From assembly GCA_965275905.1 (NCBI GenBank), contig CBDHYJ010000078.1:10908-74907 (forward strand): a stretch of 64,000 bases of DNA, in the 5' to 3' direction. The notes under the pieces are model-generated. The model searched no databases. It worked only from the letters and a program-made list of their open reading frames with translations, and had not been told where the DNA came from. The DNA is from Hyphomicrobiales bacterium (lineage in GTDB: Bacteria > Pseudomonadota > Alphaproteobacteria > Rhizobiales > JAJFHC01). The position numbers were made by a program, and so were the translations under genes. Position 1 is the first letter of the stretch, and every line of letters starts with the position of its first letter. Shown here in pieces: positions 5,606-43,314 of the stretch.

Positions 5606-5864
5606 TTCAGATGCTCCTTGAGCTGGCCGGTGTGGGGTAGGCCTCAGATCCGCTAAACACTGATACGGCAGATTTACGCAGCGGAATATGTAGGCGTCCG
5701 GCCAAATTGCGCGGGACAATAGTGAAAACTCCGGGCGCAGTCAACAGCAGGTAAAAAAATATTTTCTTACGTAAAATCAATCACTTACAGGGCGTACATT
5801 CAATTGCCCTCAACACCGGAATGAGGTTATGGTGGTGGCTTTCAGAAACCAGTTTGAGGCTCCT

Positions 5865-10847: not shown

Positions 10848-12935
10848 TCATTCCAATTGCTTTAGGTGCCAGTTGGCGGAGCTTCTGTTTTTCTGTGTGA
10901 CGGGACGTTCTCGAAGAATCTGAGGTAGGTTTAGCCGATCAAGAATGAGTTTGTTCTTTTCCTTCCAGTTCGATCTCGCATTCACCGATATTGCATCCGT
11001 TAGCTGTAAGCTCCTATCATAGGCCATAATTGCCAGATTTAGAAGTTTAACAGCGCGGTCCTTCATGATGCTGGTATGGGACTGTCCAGAGCTAATTTGT
11101 TCAATGGCACCAATTGCCTGCCTTAGGTAAATGCTACCCGACGTATCGGACGCGGCAGCATCCATTAAGTTTTTCAAGCTATTATTCTGGTCAATGATGC
11201 AGATCCAATTAATTTCTAATAATTTGCCTGCAGCATTGCTTGCTATTGTTTCATATCTCTCCGTAAATCTATTCAATATTACAGACGTGTAAGCAAATTG
11301 ATTCTCTGTCCTAATTCTCTGAAATATCAGATGTTTTGCATGTCTCAATCTTTTCGCTTCCTTGATTCCAAATGATTCTCCAATATTGCATTCCTGCGTT
11401 AGTGTTACGAAATTATCCGTGCCGCTTCGAATTAATAGGATTCTTGACAAATCGTTTCTTGCTTCGAGCGCCTTATCAGCAAGTAACTCTTTGTCGGCAG
11501 AATTAATAAGAAGGAATATCAAGTAGTCCATCGCCCTAAATTTGTGCCACAGCCCAACGGCAATGTCTTTGTCTGAGAGGCCTAATTTCTCATTCTCTAA
11601 GAACTCCTGTTCAAACTGTCTGACCCAGCCGTCTAGATGAGCAAGCGCTGCCCGCCGGTCTCCAAGTACGTCATAGATTGCTGATATCACCAACGATAGA
11701 TACGGCCTGTCTGTTCTAATTGTTCGAAATGCATCGCGAACAGAGTTGCAAAACTGAACTATCGCATTCTTGGTAGGTTGTTCTTCACTGCAAATTTCAT
11801 AGCTCGCTGCGTCGTTTGAATTTTCCAAGAATGGATCCGTATTTATGAAGTGCTTTTTGTTTCCTTCTTCACTGTCGTACTTTACGAATATGTTAACGGG
11901 TGCAAAATTATTAAAATCCCAAATCATTTCCGTTAATCTTTTGCATCCGTGTTCAAAGTTCTGATCAATTCTTCCCAGTTTTATTGAGCTAGTCAGAAAT
12001 TTTCGAAAAATGGAATCGTATCTAAAATTTTCTTTCAATACTTCAAGCATAACTTGAAATATTTCACTTTGTATCTCTAAAATATCACTATCAGATATCA
12101 AAATTTTATTATTATTTACTACATCTCCAGATGCTAATATTAATCTAAGTCGATTGGCGATTTTTCTGGCTGAATTTGCGATATCATTTATCGACCCAGT
12201 TTTTGTCAATATATTCTTCATGCACAGTGAAACTGGACTTATATAATATTGAAAAAACAATTTGTCTGAATTATTAATTTCTGTGAAATAAGATTTCTTG
12301 TGTGTATTGCTATCCATAATTCGAATCATAAACGACATATCTTCGTCGCGCTCAATCAATTTATGCATATCTACTAATATTCGAAAAACATAAGAATTTG
12401 CTTGATTCTTATTTGTGCTGGTTCGGTGTGCCAATGACAATTCAAACTTCGTTTTATTATTTTTTCTTACCTGCTCTAATTCTATAGATCCAATCGGCGT
12501 CGTGATTCCACTGATGCTCCGGATTAATACGTGAAATCCGATATCGCTAGACCCTAGAAAAAGTATTACTACTGAAAATATGCCCCAATTTCGATGAATT
12601 CGCTTTTCTGATTCGTTAGCAAGGAGGTCCGGATGCATTGTCAATTCGGCCCATTTGCCAAAGATCAACCCAAATACACTTCCTAAAATGAAATAGTAAA
12701 AATCATTAGAATGAAGTTTGATATGCTCCCATCGTCTTTCCAATATCCATAAGGGATCATCTCGATACAAAACGAATAGTGTTGCAATAATAATAATCGA
12801 AAATATGCTGGTAACAGATAATACGAACCACACAAATGCGGGGTGTGATATTCCGTCATATCGTTCTCGAACAATGTAAGCGGATGAAAAGCTAATGGCC
12901 GAGGCGATAATCGCGAATATCAAAAATTCAGACAT
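10848..12935 (-). CDS. hypothetical membrane protein: four N-terminal TM helices plus a ~550-aa helical soluble domain
   Basis: It is the only long ORF in the AT-rich islet, at 695 aa. TM helices are FLIFAIIASAISFSSAYIV, FVWFVLSVTSIFSIIIIATLFVLY, FYYFILGSVFGLIFGKW and WGIFSVVILFLGSSDIGFHVLI. I recognise no catalytic motif in the rest. Confidence 0.7.
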   Translation of the reverse strand: MSEFLIFAIIASAISFSSAYIVRERYDGISHPAFVWFVLSVTSIFSIIIIATLFVLYRDDPLWILERRWEHIKLHSNDFYYFILGSVFGLIFGKWAELTMHPDLLANESEKRIHRNWGIFSVVILFLGSSDIGFHVLIRSISGITTPIGSIELEQVRKNNKTKFELSLAHRTSTNKNQANSYVFRILVDMHKLIERDEDMSFMIRIMDSNTHKKSYFTEINNSDKLFFQYYISPVSLCMKNILTKTGSINDIANSARKIANRLRLILASGDVVNNNKILISDSDILEIQSEIFQVMLEVLKENFRYDSIFRKFLTSSIKLGRIDQNFEHGCKRLTEMIWDFNNFAPVNIFVKYDSEEGNKKHFINTDPFLENSNDAASYEICSEEQPTKNAIVQFCNSVRDAFRTIRTDRPYLSLVISAIYDVLGDRRAALAHLDGWVRQFEQEFLENEKLGLSDKDIAVGLWHKFRAMDYLIFLLINSADKELLADKALEARNDLSRILLIRSGTDNFVTLTQECNIGESFGIKEAKRLRHAKHLIFQRIRTENQFAYTSVILNRFTERYETIASNAAGKLLEINWICIIDQNNSLKNLMDAAASDTSGSIYLRQAIGAIEQISSGQSHTSIMKDRAVKLLNLAIMAYDRSLQLTDAISVNARSNWKEKNKLILDRLNLPQILRERPVTQKNRSSANWHLKQLE

Positions 12936-22091: not shown

Positions 22092-22168
22092 GGGCCTGTA
22101 GCTCAGTTGGTTAGAGCCGACCGCTCATAACGGTCTGGTCGCAGGTTCGAGTCCTGCCGGGCCCACCA
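22092..22168 (+). tRNA. tRNA with CAT anticodon (elongator Met, or Ile2 read after lysidine modification)
   Basis: Full cloverleaf folded by hand: acceptor gggcctg/cgggccc, D-arm gctc-agttggttag-agc, anticodon stem gaccg/cggtc with loop ctCATaa, T-arm gcagg-ttcgagt-cctgc, discriminator A, encoded CCA. It is not an initiator (no 1:72 mismatch, no GGG/CCC anticodon stem). Confidence 0.93.
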
Positions 22169-37568: not shown

Positions 37569-38462
37569 ATGGACCATCGCGCATTTGTCGCGTCGCTGAG
37601 TGCCGAGCAGCGACGGCACCTGACGGCGAAATCCGACCGGGCGGGGCTTGCCCATCTGGTGTCGCACTGGGGCGCGATCCTGCTCGTCGGCGGTCTCATT
37701 CTGGCGGAAGTGCCGGGCTGGCCCCTGCTGATGGTGGTGCAGGGGATCCTGATCGTCTTCCTGTTCACGCTGCTGCACGAGACGGTGCACCGGACGCCGT
37801 TCGCGTCGGAGCGCCTCAACACGCTCGCGGGCTATGTCTGCGGCTTCGCGCTCGTTCTGGCACCCTACTGGTTCCGCTTCTTCCATCTCGCCCATCACCG
37901 CCACACCCATGACCCGGAGCATGATCCGGAACTCGCGCAAGCCAAACCCGATACGGCCTTGCGGTACATCGCCTATGTCTCCGGACTGCCGGTCTGGGTG
38001 TCCCATGTCCGCACGCTCGTCCGGAACGCGGCCGGCCGTTGCGACGACGCCTTCGTGCCGCCGGCAAAACGCGGCCGGGTCCAACACGAGGCGCGGATCA
38101 TGGTGCTCGGCTACGCGATGCTGGCGGCAGTCTGTATCGGTGTCGGCGCAACCGGCCCGCTCTATGTCTGGGTGCTGCCGGCGCTGATCGGCCAGCCGTT
38201 CCTGCGGCTCTACCTCCTGGCGGAGCACGGGCGGTGCCCGCATGTGACCAACATGTTCGAGAACACCCGCACCACCTTCACGACCGGCCTCGTCCGCTGG
38301 CTTGCCTGGAACATGCCCTATCATGCCGAGCATCACGCCTATCCGACGGTGCCGTTCCACCGGTTGCCCGAGCTGCACCGGCTGGCGCGCGCGCACCTGC
38401 GCGAGACCGAGCGCGGCTATGCCCGGTTCCACGCCAAGTACACCGCCGACCTGTCTGCGTGA
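37569..38462 (+). CDS. fatty-acid desaturase family membrane protein
   Basis: Three His boxes: HETVH, HLAHHRHTH, HAEHHAYP. Confidence 0.85.
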   Translation: MDHRAFVASLSAEQRRHLTAKSDRAGLAHLVSHWGAILLVGGLILAEVPGWPLLMVVQGILIVFLFTLLHETVHRTPFASERLNTLAGYVCGFALVLAPYWFRFFHLAHHRHTHDPEHDPELAQAKPDTALRYIAYVSGLPVWVSHVRTLVRNAAGRCDDAFVPPAKRGRVQHEARIMVLGYAMLAAVCIGVGATGPLYVWVLPALIGQPFLRLYLLAEHGRCPHVTNMFENTRTTFTTGLVRWLAWNMPYHAEHHAYPTVPFHRLPELHRLARAHLRETERGYARFHAKYTADLSA

Positions 38463-38479: not shown

Positions 38480-39406
38480 CTACCCGTCCACTTGCGCAAG
38501 CGTATCTGCCCGCTCGATTGCGCTGACGAGCGAGTTGTCCGAGACCTTGGTATAGATCTCGGTCGTGGAGATGCTTGCGTGACCCAACAGGCGCTGAACG
38601 AGGCGGATATCCACGCCTTCTTCGATAAGCATGGTCGCCGCTGAATGGCGAAATCTATGCGGCGTCAGATGCGGCTCGATGGAAAGGGAGCCGGATAGTG
38701 TCCGTAGCCGCTTCCGGAATGCTGCTTCGGTCAAACGGCTGCCGCGGGAATTCAGGAACAGGAATGCATGAGCATCAGACGAACGGTTTCGGAATTCTCG
38801 ATGATGTCTCAGATCCCGCAACAGGCGGGCGTTCGTGATGTATACGGTTCTCTCGCGGTTGCCCTTGCCGCGCACCCTGATCCGGGAACATGAATGGGAA
38901 ACATCGCTGATGCGCAGATTGGTCGCCTCTCCGATACGCATGCCCGTGACCACGAGCAGACGTGCAATCAGGCCGGTAATCTGATCGGACGTGGTCGGCG
39001 CCTCTAAGCCGCGGCCCTCTTCCACAAGGTGCTTCGAGGCCTGAAACAGCGCGCTGAGGGTAGGGCGGTCGATCGGTCTCGGCAGTCTCCGTGGTACCTT
39101 GAGTTCGAGCCGGAGCCCGTCGAACGGGGACAGTGATCCGTCGGCTTCCTCCTGCAGCCAGCGAAAGTAGGATCGCAAGGTGGCGAAACGCCTGCGGATG
39201 GTTGCCGCGCCGGATGACCTCTCTTCGCGCAGATATTGATGGTATTCGACCATGTCGTCTGGCTTCGGCATGCCGGATAGCCCGTACCGGTCTGCGAATC
39301 TCTTGAATGCTCTCAAATCCTGCTGATACGCCCGGATCGAGTTGGCGCTGAGGCCAAGTTGATCCCGGCAGTAAGTTGCGAACGCGCTGAAATGAATCTC
39401 GATCAT
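38480..39406 (-). CDS. tyrosine site-specific recombinase (XerC/D-phage integrase family)
   Basis: N-terminal SAM-like domain (IRAYQQDLRAFKRF). Catalytic domain with RIGEATNLRISDV, HRFRHSAATMLIEEGVDIRLVQRLLGHASISTTEIYTKV (R..HxxR..H..Y). GGAGAG RBS. Confidence 0.9.
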   Translation of the reverse strand: MIEIHFSAFATYCRDQLGLSANSIRAYQQDLRAFKRFADRYGLSGMPKPDDMVEYHQYLREERSSGAATIRRRFATLRSYFRWLQEEADGSLSPFDGLRLELKVPRRLPRPIDRPTLSALFQASKHLVEEGRGLEAPTTSDQITGLIARLLVVTGMRIGEATNLRISDVSHSCSRIRVRGKGNRERTVYITNARLLRDLRHHREFRNRSSDAHAFLFLNSRGSRLTEAAFRKRLRTLSGSLSIEPHLTPHRFRHSAATMLIEEGVDIRLVQRLLGHASISTTEIYTKVSDNSLVSAIERADTLAQVDG

Positions 39407-39621
39407 CGTGTCTCTCCATTATGTAACGGGTGCGCGATGATCCGGCAGCCGGAGCAACTCGATCGCACCAGCGCGTTGAAGTGCGACGAGAATCTAAAGA
39501 ATCACTTAGGAAATCGATTTTCGGTTTTGGAAATCTGCTGAAAAATAGGATTTAATCCTAAGTTTTTGCTATTCTTCGCGCGCAAATGCTGACTTGTTGA
39601 AGGCAAGAATTGTCAAGTAAC

Positions 39622-39654
39622 GATAACTGGGAATTATCATGAATGTTGAGGGGG
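39622..39654 (+). repeat. inverted repeat, left copy (IR-L)
   Basis: gataactgggaattatcATGAATGTTGAGGGGG: 17 nt of leader plus the first 16 nt of the methyltransferase CDS. Confidence 0.97.
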
Positions 39655-40949
39655 CCGATTATCGATCCCATAGTTCGAAATTAGAAAAGTGGGCAGTTCA
39701 CAAATTGCTGAAGTTTTTGTTTGGTTCAGCTCCTGTGGAACTCGATTTTCAAGAAGGTGATATTAAAAAATTAAATCACCCCAACCCAACGATACGGGTG
39801 GCACCCCCACGCCTATGGCGACTGATTCTCATCCTTCGAAATCCCAATTATCACTTCCCGGCTGCTTATGTAGACGGCTTCTGGTATTGCACAAAAGGCG
39901 AATTGAGTGATCTTGTTTTGCAACTCAAAAACCGAAAGCGGAGAAACACCCGCAATTCTGGGTTATCCTTTGGGTTGGGAGAACTCGGAATTCACATCTA
40001 TAGGCACTATTTGCGACCGTCTTCGCTACGGGAAACACGTAAACACTACAATACCGACGTAAGAATGTATCGGGCCGTTCTAGGCGAGAGCCTAATATAC
40101 TCATGTGCCTTTTTTGAATCAGTTTCAGACACGCTTGAGCAGGCTCAGGCGAACAAGGTGTCAACGACCTTACGCCGTCTGGCCGACCAAATCGACGAAG
40201 GCACTCTTACATTGGATATTGGTTGTGGTTGGGGAAGCTTTGTTTTCTCAGCAGCCAAAATAAACGAAGGCAGATATCATGGAATCTCGATCGCCAAGTC
40301 GCAGGTAGACTACGCTGTCAAAACCAGGCGGAAGTTGGATAAGCGCATCGCCGAACGGCTCGAGTTCTTCCACTGTGATTTCTTAGATTTTAGGCCAGAT
40401 GAAAACAATGTTTACGATTACATTGTGAGCATAGGGATGTTAGAGCATGTTGGCAAAACACAATATCCAAAATATTTTGCCGAGATTTATCGACTGCTGA
40501 AACCTGGCGGACGCGCACTAGTTCACTCAATCACAAGACGGCAAACTGGTGTTACAAATGTTTGGATTGATCAACACGTATTTCCTGGTGGATATATTCC
40601 AAGAGCGTCAGAGGTCATGCGTGGAATTGAAGGATCGGGTCTGGAGTTATTTTCCAGTCATGTTCACAACGGGCTCAACTACAAAAAGACTTTGCAATAT
40701 TGGCTCGATAATTTGTCAAGAAACGAAAAACTATGCCTCACGTTATTGAAGAATTCTGTCGTGGGAGCGGCGTCGCTTGGAGGAGGAGGCGATATTTTGG
40801 ACTACCAGTCTCGACGCGGTTATCGAATTTGGAAATTTTATCTATCTTCCATTCAATGCATATTTGACAGAAACGGTGGCGCTTTTGACGTGACGCAGTT
40901 TGTCATGGTCAAACCAAGCCAAGAAACTTTCCTACAGCGAGAACCATAA
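39639..40949 (+). CDS. cyclopropane-fatty-acyl-phospholipid synthase-like SAM-dependent methyltransferase
   Basis: 436 aa. YSCAFFE...LEQAQ, SAM motif I LDIGCGWGSF, IVSIGMLEHVG, LLKPGGRALVHSI, FPGGYIPR, YKKTLQYW: the CMAS/CFA-synthase family pattern. Confidence 0.85.
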   Translation: MNVEGADYRSHSSKLEKWAVHKLLKFLFGSAPVELDFQEGDIKKLNHPNPTIRVAPPRLWRLILILRNPNYHFPAAYVDGFWYCTKGELSDLVLQLKNRKRRNTRNSGLSFGLGELGIHIYRHYLRPSSLRETRKHYNTDVRMYRAVLGESLIYSCAFFESVSDTLEQAQANKVSTTLRRLADQIDEGTLTLDIGCGWGSFVFSAAKINEGRYHGISIAKSQVDYAVKTRRKLDKRIAERLEFFHCDFLDFRPDENNVYDYIVSIGMLEHVGKTQYPKYFAEIYRLLKPGGRALVHSITRRQTGVTNVWIDQHVFPGGYIPRASEVMRGIEGSGLELFSSHVHNGLNYKKTLQYWLDNLSRNEKLCLTLLKNSVVGAASLGGGGDILDYQSRRGYRIWKFYLSSIQCIFDRNGGAFDVTQFVMVKPSQETFLQREP

Positions 40950-41967
40950 CTCCGCCGATAACACTCTGAGTGATCGTTAACATGGAGCTAATAGCAAAAT
41001 AAAGGCACCTATCTGAGCGCGATTTCGCGCTTGCAGCTATTCCGCCAAGAGGCTCGGGTAACATAGCTTCATCCGCATCGTTTGTGCCGAAATAAATGTC
41101 CTGAATTTTCTTCGAGAGTCGAACTAGTAGGAAAATTAGAGAAACCAACAACACAAGAGCCATGCCTACAAAGGTAGGTAGGAATACAGTTCCTGTAATA
41201 AACAACTGGCCTGGGAATGTGACCGGATAAAAAGTCTGTTGTGCTCCAACGACGCTTTCAAGAAACGCATATGGCATCAATGCGGCCTCGATGGACCATG
41301 GATCGAAAGACAATGGCGGCTTCTCCAATGCCATTGGATAAAGAAAATTCGAGACCAACTGGGAGGAGGAAAACAGCAACAATGCTGCAACCAAATCAAA
41401 GGCAACTCTTCCAACCACAGTTGCGTACCGCTGGAGAGAAAATGCTGAACCGATACGAGTAAGATTGATGAATGTTATTGCTAACGAGAGCAAGTCCGTA
41501 ACAACATTCACGACTGCCAAGATCGCAATATTTACAATCTGCGACGGAGCGTCTTTGCTAACGCCAAAGGCAACCAATTTTCCAGCCTCTTGGCTAGCGG
41601 TAATGTCTATTGGTTTCGCAAGGAAAACCAATATCAAACAGTAAAGCATATAGTAAGAAAATAACTGCCAAAAACACTTCAACTTATTCTGTGCAAAATA
41701 GGTCCGACCAATATAATTGGCATTTATGTATTGACCGTCATTGCTCGATATATCGTGTTTTGATGCGCCCGAGAATTTTAGCAGAGATATTTTAATTCTG
41801 GTGATAGCGCCGACCAGAGCATTGGCCATTGGTGATTTCGATTTTTCCCCTTCCAATAAAAATCGAAATATACTGCCCCAGTTCAACACTAGCAGTACAA
41901 ACAAAACCAGCGAAAATGAAGCGATAGCGAGTTCCGGCCCGCCAGCAATCACCCCCTCAACATTCAT
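40909..41967 (-). CDS. hypothetical polytopic membrane protein (352 aa)
   Basis: Roughly 8 hydrophobic helices (for example LAIASFSLVLFVLLVLNW, FSYYMLYCLILVFLA, IVNIAILAVVNVVTDLLSLAITFI, VFLPTFVGMALVLLVSLIFLLV). Shares only MNVEG with the methyltransferase. Its 3' end overlaps that gene by 41 nt. Confidence 0.75.
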   Translation of the reverse strand: MNVEGVIAGGPELAIASFSLVLFVLLVLNWGSIFRFLLEGEKSKSPMANALVGAITRIKISLLKFSGASKHDISSNDGQYINANYIGRTYFAQNKLKCFWQLFSYYMLYCLILVFLAKPIDITASQEAGKLVAFGVSKDAPSQIVNIAILAVVNVVTDLLSLAITFINLTRIGSAFSLQRYATVVGRVAFDLVAALLLFSSSQLVSNFLYPMALEKPPLSFDPWSIEAALMPYAFLESVVGAQQTFYPVTFPGQLFITGTVFLPTFVGMALVLLVSLIFLLVRLSKKIQDIYFGTNDADEAMLPEPLGGIAASAKSRSDRCLYFAISSMLTITQSVIGGVMVLAVGKFLGLV

Positions 41968-41984
41968 GATAATTCCCAGTTATC
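41952..41984 (-). repeat. inverted repeat, right copy (IR-R)
   Basis: ccccctcaacattcatgataattcccagttatc is the exact reverse complement of 39622-39654. Confidence 0.97.
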
Positions 41985-42175
41985 AGAACTCCGTGAGGGG
42001 CTCGTAGTGGAAGGTCCAAAACTCAATGAGAGCTTCGAGTTGCGCCTTCGCTAGCGATGTGACCAGTTCGGACGTGCTGCTTGGCGAGGCTAGCCCGCTG
42101 GTCAATTTGCAACACGTTGGGCACCTGAAGGCGTGAGGACTCTGCTCTAACAGAACTGCCGCGCCGATTTACCGC

Positions 42176-42325
42176 TCACGTCGCCTTGTCGAGCGCCTCC
42201 AGTAACTTGTCCTTCTCGTCCGCGTGCATCGAGATGTTGGTTTCCGCGTAGGGGAAGTTCAGCGCCGTAACCTCGTCGTGAAAGGCTTTCAGGGCCGTCC
42301 CGCCTTCCGGCCGGGACGCCGTCAT
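42176..42325 (-). CDS. hypothetical 49-aa protein translationally coupled to the hydroxylase gene
   Basis: Its ATG overlaps the upstream stop (ATGA at 42322-42325). Product: MTASRPEGGTALKAFHDEVTALNFPYAETNISMHADEKDKLLEALDKAT. In the track it appears only as the tail of shadow ORF 42176..43201. Confidence 0.4.
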   Translation of the reverse strand: MTASRPEGGTALKAFHDEVTALNFPYAETNISMHADEKDKLLEALDKAT

Positions 42326-43314
42326 TTTGCATACATCTTCTGCTTGCGGGCGCGGGTTGCCGCGGTCGCAGCCGCGCTGCCGTCGTGAAACGATCCGAAA
42401 ATTCTGTCCCAGGGCATCTCGGACGTTCCGTAATTGCACTCGAAATAACGGTGGTGGAGCTGATGGAAGAAATCTCCGGCCGCGATGCGTTTCCTGTCCT
42501 TCACCAGCACACTCTCGAATCCTGAATGGGAAAAGGCAGGGTTCAGGCCCTCGAGATAGAGATGAAACAGGATATGCACCGGGTGCGACGGGACGACGAA
42601 GTGGATCAGCACGGATGAGAAGTAGAGTGTGGTTTCGACCGGATGCATCGAGATCCCGGCCCAGGGCCCGATATTGATGTTGCGGTGGTGCAGGGAATGC
42701 GCGAGCCCATAGAGCGGCGGCCAGTGCAGGAGGCGGTGAATCCAGTAGAAATGGAAGCTCGACCAGATCGGGATGATCACCAGCCACGCGACGAACCAGA
42801 CCGGGTTTTCGGCGAAGCCGATCTGCGGTGCGTAGCCGTTCGCGGCGGCCCAGAAATAGAGCACCTCGTAGGCGGTCCAGGCTGTCACGCCGCTCGCGAT
42901 TGTCCAGAACATGTTGTCCCAGACCTGATTGCGGAATGTGTAGGTGCCGTTGTTGCGCATCAGGTCGCGGGCGTCGAACTTCAGCCTCTTGCCCTGTGCC
43001 GAGAAGCTGTAGAACCACAAGTGCAGACCGCCAGCGACCAGGAAAATGAGGATCAGATTGCGGAGCCAGATCTGGAAGACCCAGCCGGGTGCCAGCGACT
43101 GCATGGTGGCCCATGACGGCTGCAGCCACTGATAGATGACGATGGCGAAGACGAGTTCCAGCGTCACGGAGCTGACGGCCAGCCAGTAGCGGGCAATCCA
43201 TTTCAGCCAGGCGAGCGGCCGGGGCGGCCAGCTGAGGATCGGTGACACCGGGATCGGCAAGTCCGGGTGATGGTTCCAGTCGCGGCTCGACGTTTCCGGG
43301 TTGGTGGACATCAT
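42322..43314 (-). CDS. fatty-acid hydroxylase / sterol desaturase superfamily membrane protein
   Basis: His motifs HRLLHWPPLYGLAHSLHH and HQLHHRYFECNYG; several TM helices. Confidence 0.85.
   Translation of the reverse strand: MMSTNPETSSRDWNHHPDLPIPVSPILSWPPRPLAWLKWIARYWLAVSSVTLELVFAIVIYQWLQPSWATMQSLAPGWVFQIWLRNLILIFLVAGGLHLWFYSFSAQGKRLKFDARDLMRNNGTYTFRNQVWDNMFWTIASGVTAWTAYEVLYFWAAANGYAPQIGFAENPVWFVAWLVIIPIWSSFHFYWIHRLLHWPPLYGLAHSLHHRNINIGPWAGISMHPVETTLYFSSVLIHFVVPSHPVHILFHLYLEGLNPAFSHSGFESVLVKDRKRIAAGDFFHQLHHRYFECNYGTSEMPWDRIFGSFHDGSAAATAATRARKQKMYAK

Follow-up and report, generated by a model that had tools for sequence, protein, structure and literature searches.

Within the 64,000-nucleotide stretch of a Hyphomicrobiales bacterium analysed here in its full length (hereafter the window), two convergent genes, one for a cyclopropane-fatty-acid (CFA)-synthase-like S-adenosylmethionine (SAM) methyltransferase (MT) and one for a polytopic membrane protein (Memb), are enclosed by perfect inverted repeats (IRs) and adjoin the gene of a Xer-like tyrosine recombinase (Rec). 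On comparative sequence grounds, this locus is probably a site-specific DNA inversion switch that exchanges MT and Memb. A recombinase-driven swap of whole genes had been proposed in a preliminary description of this DNA, and it is now supported by the recurrence of the gene trio together with a conserved 15-bp core site in other lineages, by the presence of both segment orientations among them, and by two contigs, L018 and L019, between which the segment is inverted (the loci compared are designated by L numbers). The comparison strongly supports inversion at the level of the family, from which we infer it for the window strain itself.

Inverted repeats, core site and recombinase

The left repeat, GATAACTGGGAATTATCATGAATGTTGAGGGGG, occupies positions 39622-39654 on the + strand and 41952-41984 is its exact reverse complement. 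Even at a tolerance of three mismatches, the 33-mer matches twice in the window and in none of 100 dinucleotide-preserving shuffles, so that a chance origin was rejected; the exact 33-mer has no occurrence in 185,579 representative genomes. A copy consists of 17 nt of leader followed by the first 16 nt of a coding sequence, the MT and Memb proteins both start with MNVEG, and the unit to be flipped measures 2,363 bp. The perfect repeat, its division into 17 and 16 nt with the shared MNVEG, and the placing of the recombinase gene, which starts 215 bp to the left of the left repeat and is transcribed away from the segment, had all been described before, and they were confirmed on the sequence, the open reading frames (ORFs) and the coordinates. 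What had not been noticed is that the locus forms an AT-rich island (~39450-41990) with a GC content of 0.34-0.50, between flanks of 0.60-0.70. Its main features are the following:

38480-39406, - strand: rec, encoding the Xer-like tyrosine recombinase and presumed invertase, 308 aa (Pfam Phage_integrase, 5e-38, and SAM_1)
39407-39621: AT-rich intergenic region from rec to the core, 215 bp, GC 0.385-0.46, with presumed divergent promoters
39622-39654, + strand: left repeat (IR-L), 33 bp, with the core ATAACTGGGAATTAT at 39623-39637, GGGA at 39629-39632 and the MT ATG at 39639
39639-40949, + strand: MT, encoding the CFA-synthase-like SAM methyltransferase, 436 aa (Pfam CMAS, 1.5e-54), now on the Rec side
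40909-41967, - strand: Memb, encoding the polytopic membrane protein of an uncharacterised family, 352 aa, now on the far side
41952-41984, - strand: right repeat (IR-R), 33 bp, with the core at 41969-41983 and the Memb ATG at 41967-41965

The core, ATAACTnrGAATTAT, occurs as an inverted pair at both segment ends in eight MT/Memb lineages, and 13 of its 15 positions are invariant across 19 sites, in loci whose proteins are only 36-61% identical. Its arms, inverted and 4 bp each (ATAA/TTAT), flank a 7-bp centre (CTnrGAA) that is asymmetric, and the two variable bases of this centre differ by lineage and yet match between the partner sites in all eight loci (~1.5e-5 by chance, from pooled frequencies). 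Such a match is expected if strand exchange needs homology at these positions; gene conversion would give the same match. The core is also a translation signal. The GGA or AGGA of its centre stands at Shine-Dalgarno (SD) distance from the start codon, the GGGA of IR-L being likely the SD sequence of MT, and the base after the core is a G in 14 of the 19 sites, where it completes an ATG with the last two bases of the core; in the remaining five, window included, the ATG lies 1-5 nt past it.

The IRs of the other lineages are 16-23 bp long, and the 33 bp of the window are the longest. Judged by this conservation, the functional site is the 15-bp core, and the 17 extra identical inner bases of the window are a lineage-specific extension. 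Because these inner bases have been homogenised in the window, the identity of the MNVEG starts is a local feature, on which the design does not depend. The earlier idea of a shared 5' end therefore survives as a conserved site at both gene starts, whereas its extent of 33 bp and five codons is specific to the window.

The recombinase itself is Xer-like by its Phage_integrase domain, and the preliminary label "XerC/D-type" holds to that extent only. Its NCBIfam scores for XerC (197.6 bits, cut-off 335.15) and XerD (179.8, cut-off 329.6) both fall under the equivalog cut-offs, and a true XerC or XerD dimer-resolution recombinase was rejected, as was an integron integrase (TIGR02249, 102.4 for a cut-off of 265; NF011946, 66 for 435). 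The nearest solved structures are XerA, a XerC-like protein and XerD; PADLOC gave no match. Residues R157, K181, H250, R253, H276 and Y285, which we take to be the tyrosine-recombinase catalytic set, are invariant among the Rec orthologues of MT/Memb loci, and Rec is the presumptive catalyst of the inversion. The window Rec shares 34-52% identity with those of the other MT/Memb loci compared, and its clade, which greatly exceeds the cargo family in size, comprises 1,302 proteins at E <= 1e-45, mostly from Rhodobacterales and Hyphomicrobiales where the organism is named; over 100 members share 58-69% identity with the window Rec and are thereby closer to it than the Recs of the compared MT/Memb loci. 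The Rec of the Cognatiyoonia isolate is encoded on a contig no longer than 1,249 bp.

The repeats could also recombine without Rec, by RecA-dependent homologous recombination, with the neighbouring recombinase unrelated to the inversions. Inversions between short inverted repeats do occur, and the window IR reaches 33 bp. However, the 16-23 bp found in other lineages are short for efficient RecA-dependent recombination, a homology-driven exchange would not demand that a 15-bp core be conserved amid such divergent proteins, and a Rec orthologue accompanies the core-bounded MT/Memb pair in seven of the seven lineages with enough flank (L006 has no flank and lies outside this count). We regard the RecA route as very improbable.

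The two cargo proteins are of unequal familiarity. MT belongs, by sequence, to the CMAS superfamily; its scores against the NCBIfam cyclopropane fatty acid synthases (187 bits for a cut-off of 600, NF053839; 179 for 400, NF008686) led us to reject it as a Cfa equivalog, and PADLOC gave only a generic methyltransferase-domain match (mad2). Because a clade 37-40% identical to the window MT (L020, L021), which includes a protein from a Paracoccaceae metagenome-assembled genome (MAG), is free-standing, with neither Memb nor recombinase nor core, MT can exist outside the switch. In L001, a lineage with Memb proximal to Rec, the reading frame of MT (11028-12341, - strand; identical in L003) is interrupted only once, by an in-frame stop at codon 232. 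Memb has no match in Pfam, NCBIfam or PADLOC and no sequence match in PDB, its structure model (predicted local distance difference test, pLDDT, 67) resembles no PDB fold significantly, and ten distant relatives likewise gave no Pfam domain. Its homologues are few and scattered over unrelated taxa: a set of 5.8 billion protein clusters yielded 20, and one of 1.84 billion yielded 41 representatives. In the window, the 3' ends of the two convergent genes overlap by 41 nt.

Segment orientation across lineages

Wherever the flank suffices, Memb converges on an MT orthologue with a Rec orthologue nearby (L001/L002, L004, L010, L011, which is the same as L018, L019, L014, L017 and L012). The recombinase gene points either toward the segment or away from it. 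In three lineages of the first kind, the rec stop codon lies 3-11 nt from the core, an arrangement that appears operon-like, the proximal gene being in effect the second gene of a rec operon. In L012, a Candidatus Kentrum contig, Rec is 3.5 kb from the segment, behind inserted toxin-antitoxin genes; the interval (L012:2468-5983) holds DUF433/DUF5615 and two NTP_transf_2/HEPN pairs. The direction of rec does not track Rec similarity, and either layout is a circular permutation of the other; with the short contig of the Cognatiyoonia Rec, this suggests that Rec itself may sit on a rearranging or mobile unit. The orientations are distributed as follows:

Rec toward the segment, MT on the Rec side: L004, L018
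Rec toward the segment, Memb on the Rec side: L001, L010, L019, and also L014
Rec away from the segment, MT on the Rec side: the window
Rec away from the segment, Memb on the Rec side: L017, L012

Both segment orientations are thus found in both Rec architectures. The preliminary description had pointed to related loci as the place where the opposite orientation should be sought, and they contain it, down to a pair inverted exactly at the core. The contigs L018 and L019, both long, were assembled from one sample; they have the same neighbour genes, and their flanks are collinear at 96.3 and 95.8% identity. Between them, the 2,354-bp segment is inverted and 99.96% identical (one mismatch), with the partner switch falling exactly at the core; since there is a single mismatch in the inverted segment, its orientation changed within the time of one substitution. 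The near-identical tract (L019:5804-8400 and its L018 counterpart, one mismatch) extends 184 nt and 71 nt past the cores and covers 2.6 kb in a background diverged by ~4%, which suggests a recent homologous import of the cassette region between the L018 and L019 strains.

Other contigs diverge or end at the repeats. L014 and L015 both read rec 3' end, core and Memb, and L016, from another sample, is identical to them from the core inward; its outer flank is unrelated to theirs, diverging at the core edge, and is only a candidate for the far flank of the same locus. Stand-alone contigs running exactly from IR to IR were found as L003 (Logan, 2,372 bp) and L006 (2,366 bp, from the isolate assembly of Cognatiyoonia sp. 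IB215182), while L013 (2,367 bp) has one end at the IR edge and the other at the first 31-mer specific to one junction. The 114-kb JGI contig L002 stops at the outer IR edge, and more family members lie on contigs of 2,329-2,424 bp. By our reasoning, an IR shorter than k should break a contig of a de Bruijn graph at these positions only if the reads contain both junction types, and the contig ends fit such a mixture.

The repeats are not the ends of a conventional transposon. A terminal-inverted-repeat transposon was rejected since the window holds two core copies, no transposase lies between the repeats, and a complete 2.68-Mb MAG chromosome contains one module locus; no direct repeats were seen by eye at the outer edges of the segment. 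The preliminary description had allowed for a multi-copy transposable element with target-site duplications; no such element was found.

Other cargo on the same platform

Two annotated plasmid modules of roseobacters carry the same core with other cargo, and their Recs are ~60% identical to the window Rec:

Phaeobacter inhibens pP66_d, pP80_d and pP83_d: cores at L022:880-894 and 5779-5793, 4.9-kb segment
Ruegeria sp. PR1b pSD25: 27-nt IR at L031:14318 and 21198, ~6.9-kb segment

Both share the layout of the window, with a divergent Rec 207-208 bp from the proximal core (L017, 174 bp; 174-216 bp overall where Rec points away) and with GTAACG as an outer extension of the site. When the Rec-to-core intergenic regions were compared, nothing was shared beyond this extended site. 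In the P. inhibens segment, two GT4 glycosyltransferase ORFs are opposed to the genes of an Mrr_cat + STAND/AAA NTPase and of a HAD hydrolase, and one RefSeq annotation starts the glycosyltransferase at an ATG overlapping the core. In the pSD25 segment, which has an IS21 insertion, the gene of a carbamoyltransferase is opposed to that of an Mrr_cat + AAA protein. The Mrr_cat + STAND/AAA genes (L022:829-4035 and L031:19476-21152) each stand opposite a sugar- or carbamoyl-transferase. One plasmid-cargo transferase gave a weak "GT4 in conflict systems" match, PADLOC found nothing on the plasmid cargo, and a defence role for Rec, MT, Memb or the plasmid cargo is not supported by the PADLOC library. 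Beside this IS21 insertion, the pSD25 segment holds the extended site a third time, in partial form (cgtaacgATAACCAAGAATGCT, L031:19557-19571); it is perhaps a remnant, or else a site of secondary recombination. Plasmid Recs 45-50% identical (R. denitrificans, Rhizobium, Roseovarius) showed no core and no convincing IR pair, and neither the window region nor Memb has a counterpart in the plasmid collection.

The MT/Memb module is therefore one cargo version of a wider platform made of Rec and the core. Segment GC lies 8-15 points under rec GC in all five loci tested, the MT and Memb identities track each other and disagree with those of Rec, and at least three cargo types are carried by one Rec subclade; for these reasons, cargo is suggested to move between platforms. 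A double recombination at the cores could bring such movement about, and so could homologous recombination of the ordinary kind, the evidence fitting both. More broadly, and tentatively, Rec and the core may constitute a widespread and so far undescribed platform in marine and soil Proteobacteria, with a site that doubles as a portable translation-initiation signal, so that any promoter-less gene set placed between two cores would become a two-state switch. Cassettes would be exchanged horizontally from platform to platform by means of these same sites, and the cargo, typically a methyl-, glycosyl- or carbamoyl-transferase with an effector (membrane protein or Mrr-STAND nuclease), would form alternating arms of a conflict or envelope-modification system. 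We hold this wider picture as possible but well short of established.

Part of the same evidence bears on whether the segment is mainly a mobile cassette, its cores serving cargo exchange or insertion between platforms, for example by double site-specific recombination like recombinase-mediated cassette exchange, and inversion being a by-product. This is compatible with a switch. The low segment GC and the concordant cargo but discordant Rec identities speak for it, as does the greater closeness of the window Rec to plasmid Recs with other cargo (~60%) than to those of the compared MT/Memb loci (34-52%). The homology of the P. inhibens plasmid to related plasmid backbones ends 36-97 bp before the distal core, the L018/L019 tract is nearly identical in a diverged background, and a repeated element would also yield stand-alone contigs. 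However, excision of a circle is impossible from inverted sites, and the L018/L019 tract, reaching as it does past both cores, is better explained by ordinary homologous recombination; these two contigs carry the same locus flipped, not a new insertion. There is, moreover, one locus per genome where this can be judged (the 64-kb window and the MAG chromosome), and no target-site duplication was seen by eye. A mainly mobile role therefore seems to us rather unlikely.

The proposed switch and known systems

In the proposed mechanism, Rec would act on the two inverted 15-bp cores and flip the 2.36-kb MT/Memb segment. Because the core carries the SD sequence of both genes, and the ATG overlaps it or follows within 5 nt, no promoter fits inside the segment; transcription must enter from outside, and a flip must exchange the transcriptional inputs of MT and Memb. 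On the Rec side, the input would be the divergent AT-rich promoter region in the window and read-through from rec where rec points at the segment, and on the far side, whatever the host supplies, in the window the fatty-acid hydroxylase gene reading toward Memb. As the genes are convergent and usually overlap, Rec-side transcription would also run antisense into the other gene. Two heritable, reversible states are predicted, one MT-dominant (the present state) and one Memb-dominant, and it is from this arrangement of the sequence that we infer control of expression by orientation.

Around the segment, the spacer between rec and the core ends in GTAACG (39617-39622), by which the proximal site is extended outward. 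This spacer holds direct repeats (TTAGGAAATC / TTTGGAAATC at 39506 and 39526) and an imperfect palindrome (AAAAATAGGATT/AATCCTAAGTTT, 39541-39565), which are candidate regulatory or accessory sites (39506-39565). The neighbouring features are:

41985-42321: far-side flank from IR-R to the fatty-acid hydroxylase gene, GC climbing from 0.54 to 0.62
42322-43314, - strand: fatty-acid hydroxylase gene (Pfam FA_hydroxylase), reading toward Memb across 337 bp
37569-38462: fatty-acid desaturase gene, at the other border of the island, its stop 18 nt from the rec stop

The lipid-related neighbours of a CFA-synthase-like cargo may be a coincidence, other loci having unrelated neighbours. The only Rfam match in the window is a tRNA gene (22092-22165).

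Several points weigh against an inversion switch. A consensus promoter scan stayed at background level, with no promoter demonstrated on either side, and a terminator scan of the locus also remained at background. In several loci, the far flank carries a codirectional gene, so that MT and Memb may each be transcribed whatever the state; a flip could in that case alter their ratio rather than turn genes ON and OFF. The exact proteins of the window are found on a single 153-kb contig, with one orientation on record for this genome, and the near-clonal P. inhibens plasmids pP66_d, pP80_d and pP83_d are all in one orientation, the plasmid collection containing no inverted variant of their segment. 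Finally, the switch offers no explanation of why MT and Memb, always inherited together, should alternate.

The single orientation of the window genome would equally be expected if its repeat were a fossil or static element, belonging to an inherited switch that had ceased to flip, the IRs being now only identical translation-initiation regions or a shared operator. The nonsense codon of MT in L001/L003 shows that modules can decay, and rec, divergent in the window, is not co-transcribed with the segment. Against this, both 33-bp copies are perfect, for which selection or a recent homogenisation is needed; Rec has its full length and every catalytic residue; both cargo ORFs are intact; and L017, L012 and the two plasmid modules show the divergent architecture as well. 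A static element thus appears improbable, and we retain the inversion switch, by which the window strain presumably still flips its segment.

Phase variation by inversion is known mainly from host-associated bacteria, in the form of promoter flips or of shuffled parts of related genes. The module described here is a compact natural design, in which two entire genes, unrelated to each other, would be toggled through a recombinase target that forms one element with a ribosome-binding site (RBS) and start codon. Environmental Proteobacteria have conserved this module, and plasmids use it again for other cargo. If active, it would extend inversion bet-hedging to membrane-lipid or envelope modification, and possibly defence, in free-living bacteria, offer a handle on the function of the orphan Memb family, and provide a minimal 15-bp site and 0.9-kb recombinase for genetic toggles. 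Full-text searching (site sequences, CFA synthase phase variation, similar designs) found no earlier description of it.

At the family level, the data support a tyrosine-recombinase inversion switch of unusual modular design. With fimS and the Bacteroides invertons, it has in common a tyrosine recombinase, short IRs and phase variation, which is ON/OFF and often concerns envelope functions in those systems; there, however, a promoter flips between static genes, whereas here genes would flip between static promoters. The integron also combines a tyrosine-recombinase platform and a promoter region with exchangeable, promoter-less cargo, but it relies on folded attC sites and on cassette excision and insertion, and not on a 15-bp duplex core and inversion. 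In hsdS invertons, the phage Mu G segment and shufflons, a recombinase near IRs likewise flips a segment and changes the expressed coding sequence (PMC9881135). These systems swap C-terminal modules of related proteins, and a survey of gene-altering inversions describes downstream gene parts exchanged behind one upstream part, without whole-gene swaps (PMC9881135). In the present module, whole unrelated genes are exchanged, with no shared protein part in most lineages and five shared codons in the window only.

The preliminary description could place the swap of two complete, unrelated genes at a shared 5' end in no described family. Whole-gene swapping does have a precedent, with paralogous genes: at the vpma locus of Mycoplasma agalactiae, the Xer-like recombinase Xer1 recombines sites in the 5' leaders and so brings one complete gene out of several behind the only promoter, and vsp/Mbr of M. 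bovis and vsa/HvsR of M. pulmonis are related loci (PMC2268961). As in vpma, the gene of a Xer-like recombinase adjoins our locus and complete genes would be swapped behind an outside promoter by inversion, which makes vpma/Xer1, by analogy, the nearest natural functional counterpart. Membership in the vpma/vsp/vsa class was nevertheless rejected since a CMAS methyltransferase and an orphan membrane protein are not paralogous. The vpma system shuffles several paralogous surface-lipoprotein genes, whereas the window module has two unrelated convergent genes (or gene groups), a 15-bp core that holds the SD sequence and usually the ATG, proteobacterial hosts and interchangeable cargo. The same switch logic has been engineered in the Cre-loxP constructs Brainbow-2.0 and FLEx, in which two opposed coding sequences lie between inward-facing sites and inversion picks the one facing the promoter (PMC4384809). 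In those constructs, the 34-bp loxP sites stay outside the translation signals, whereas in the module found in nature site, RBS and start codon are combined into one element, and the segment is linked to the gene of the recombinase that would invert it.

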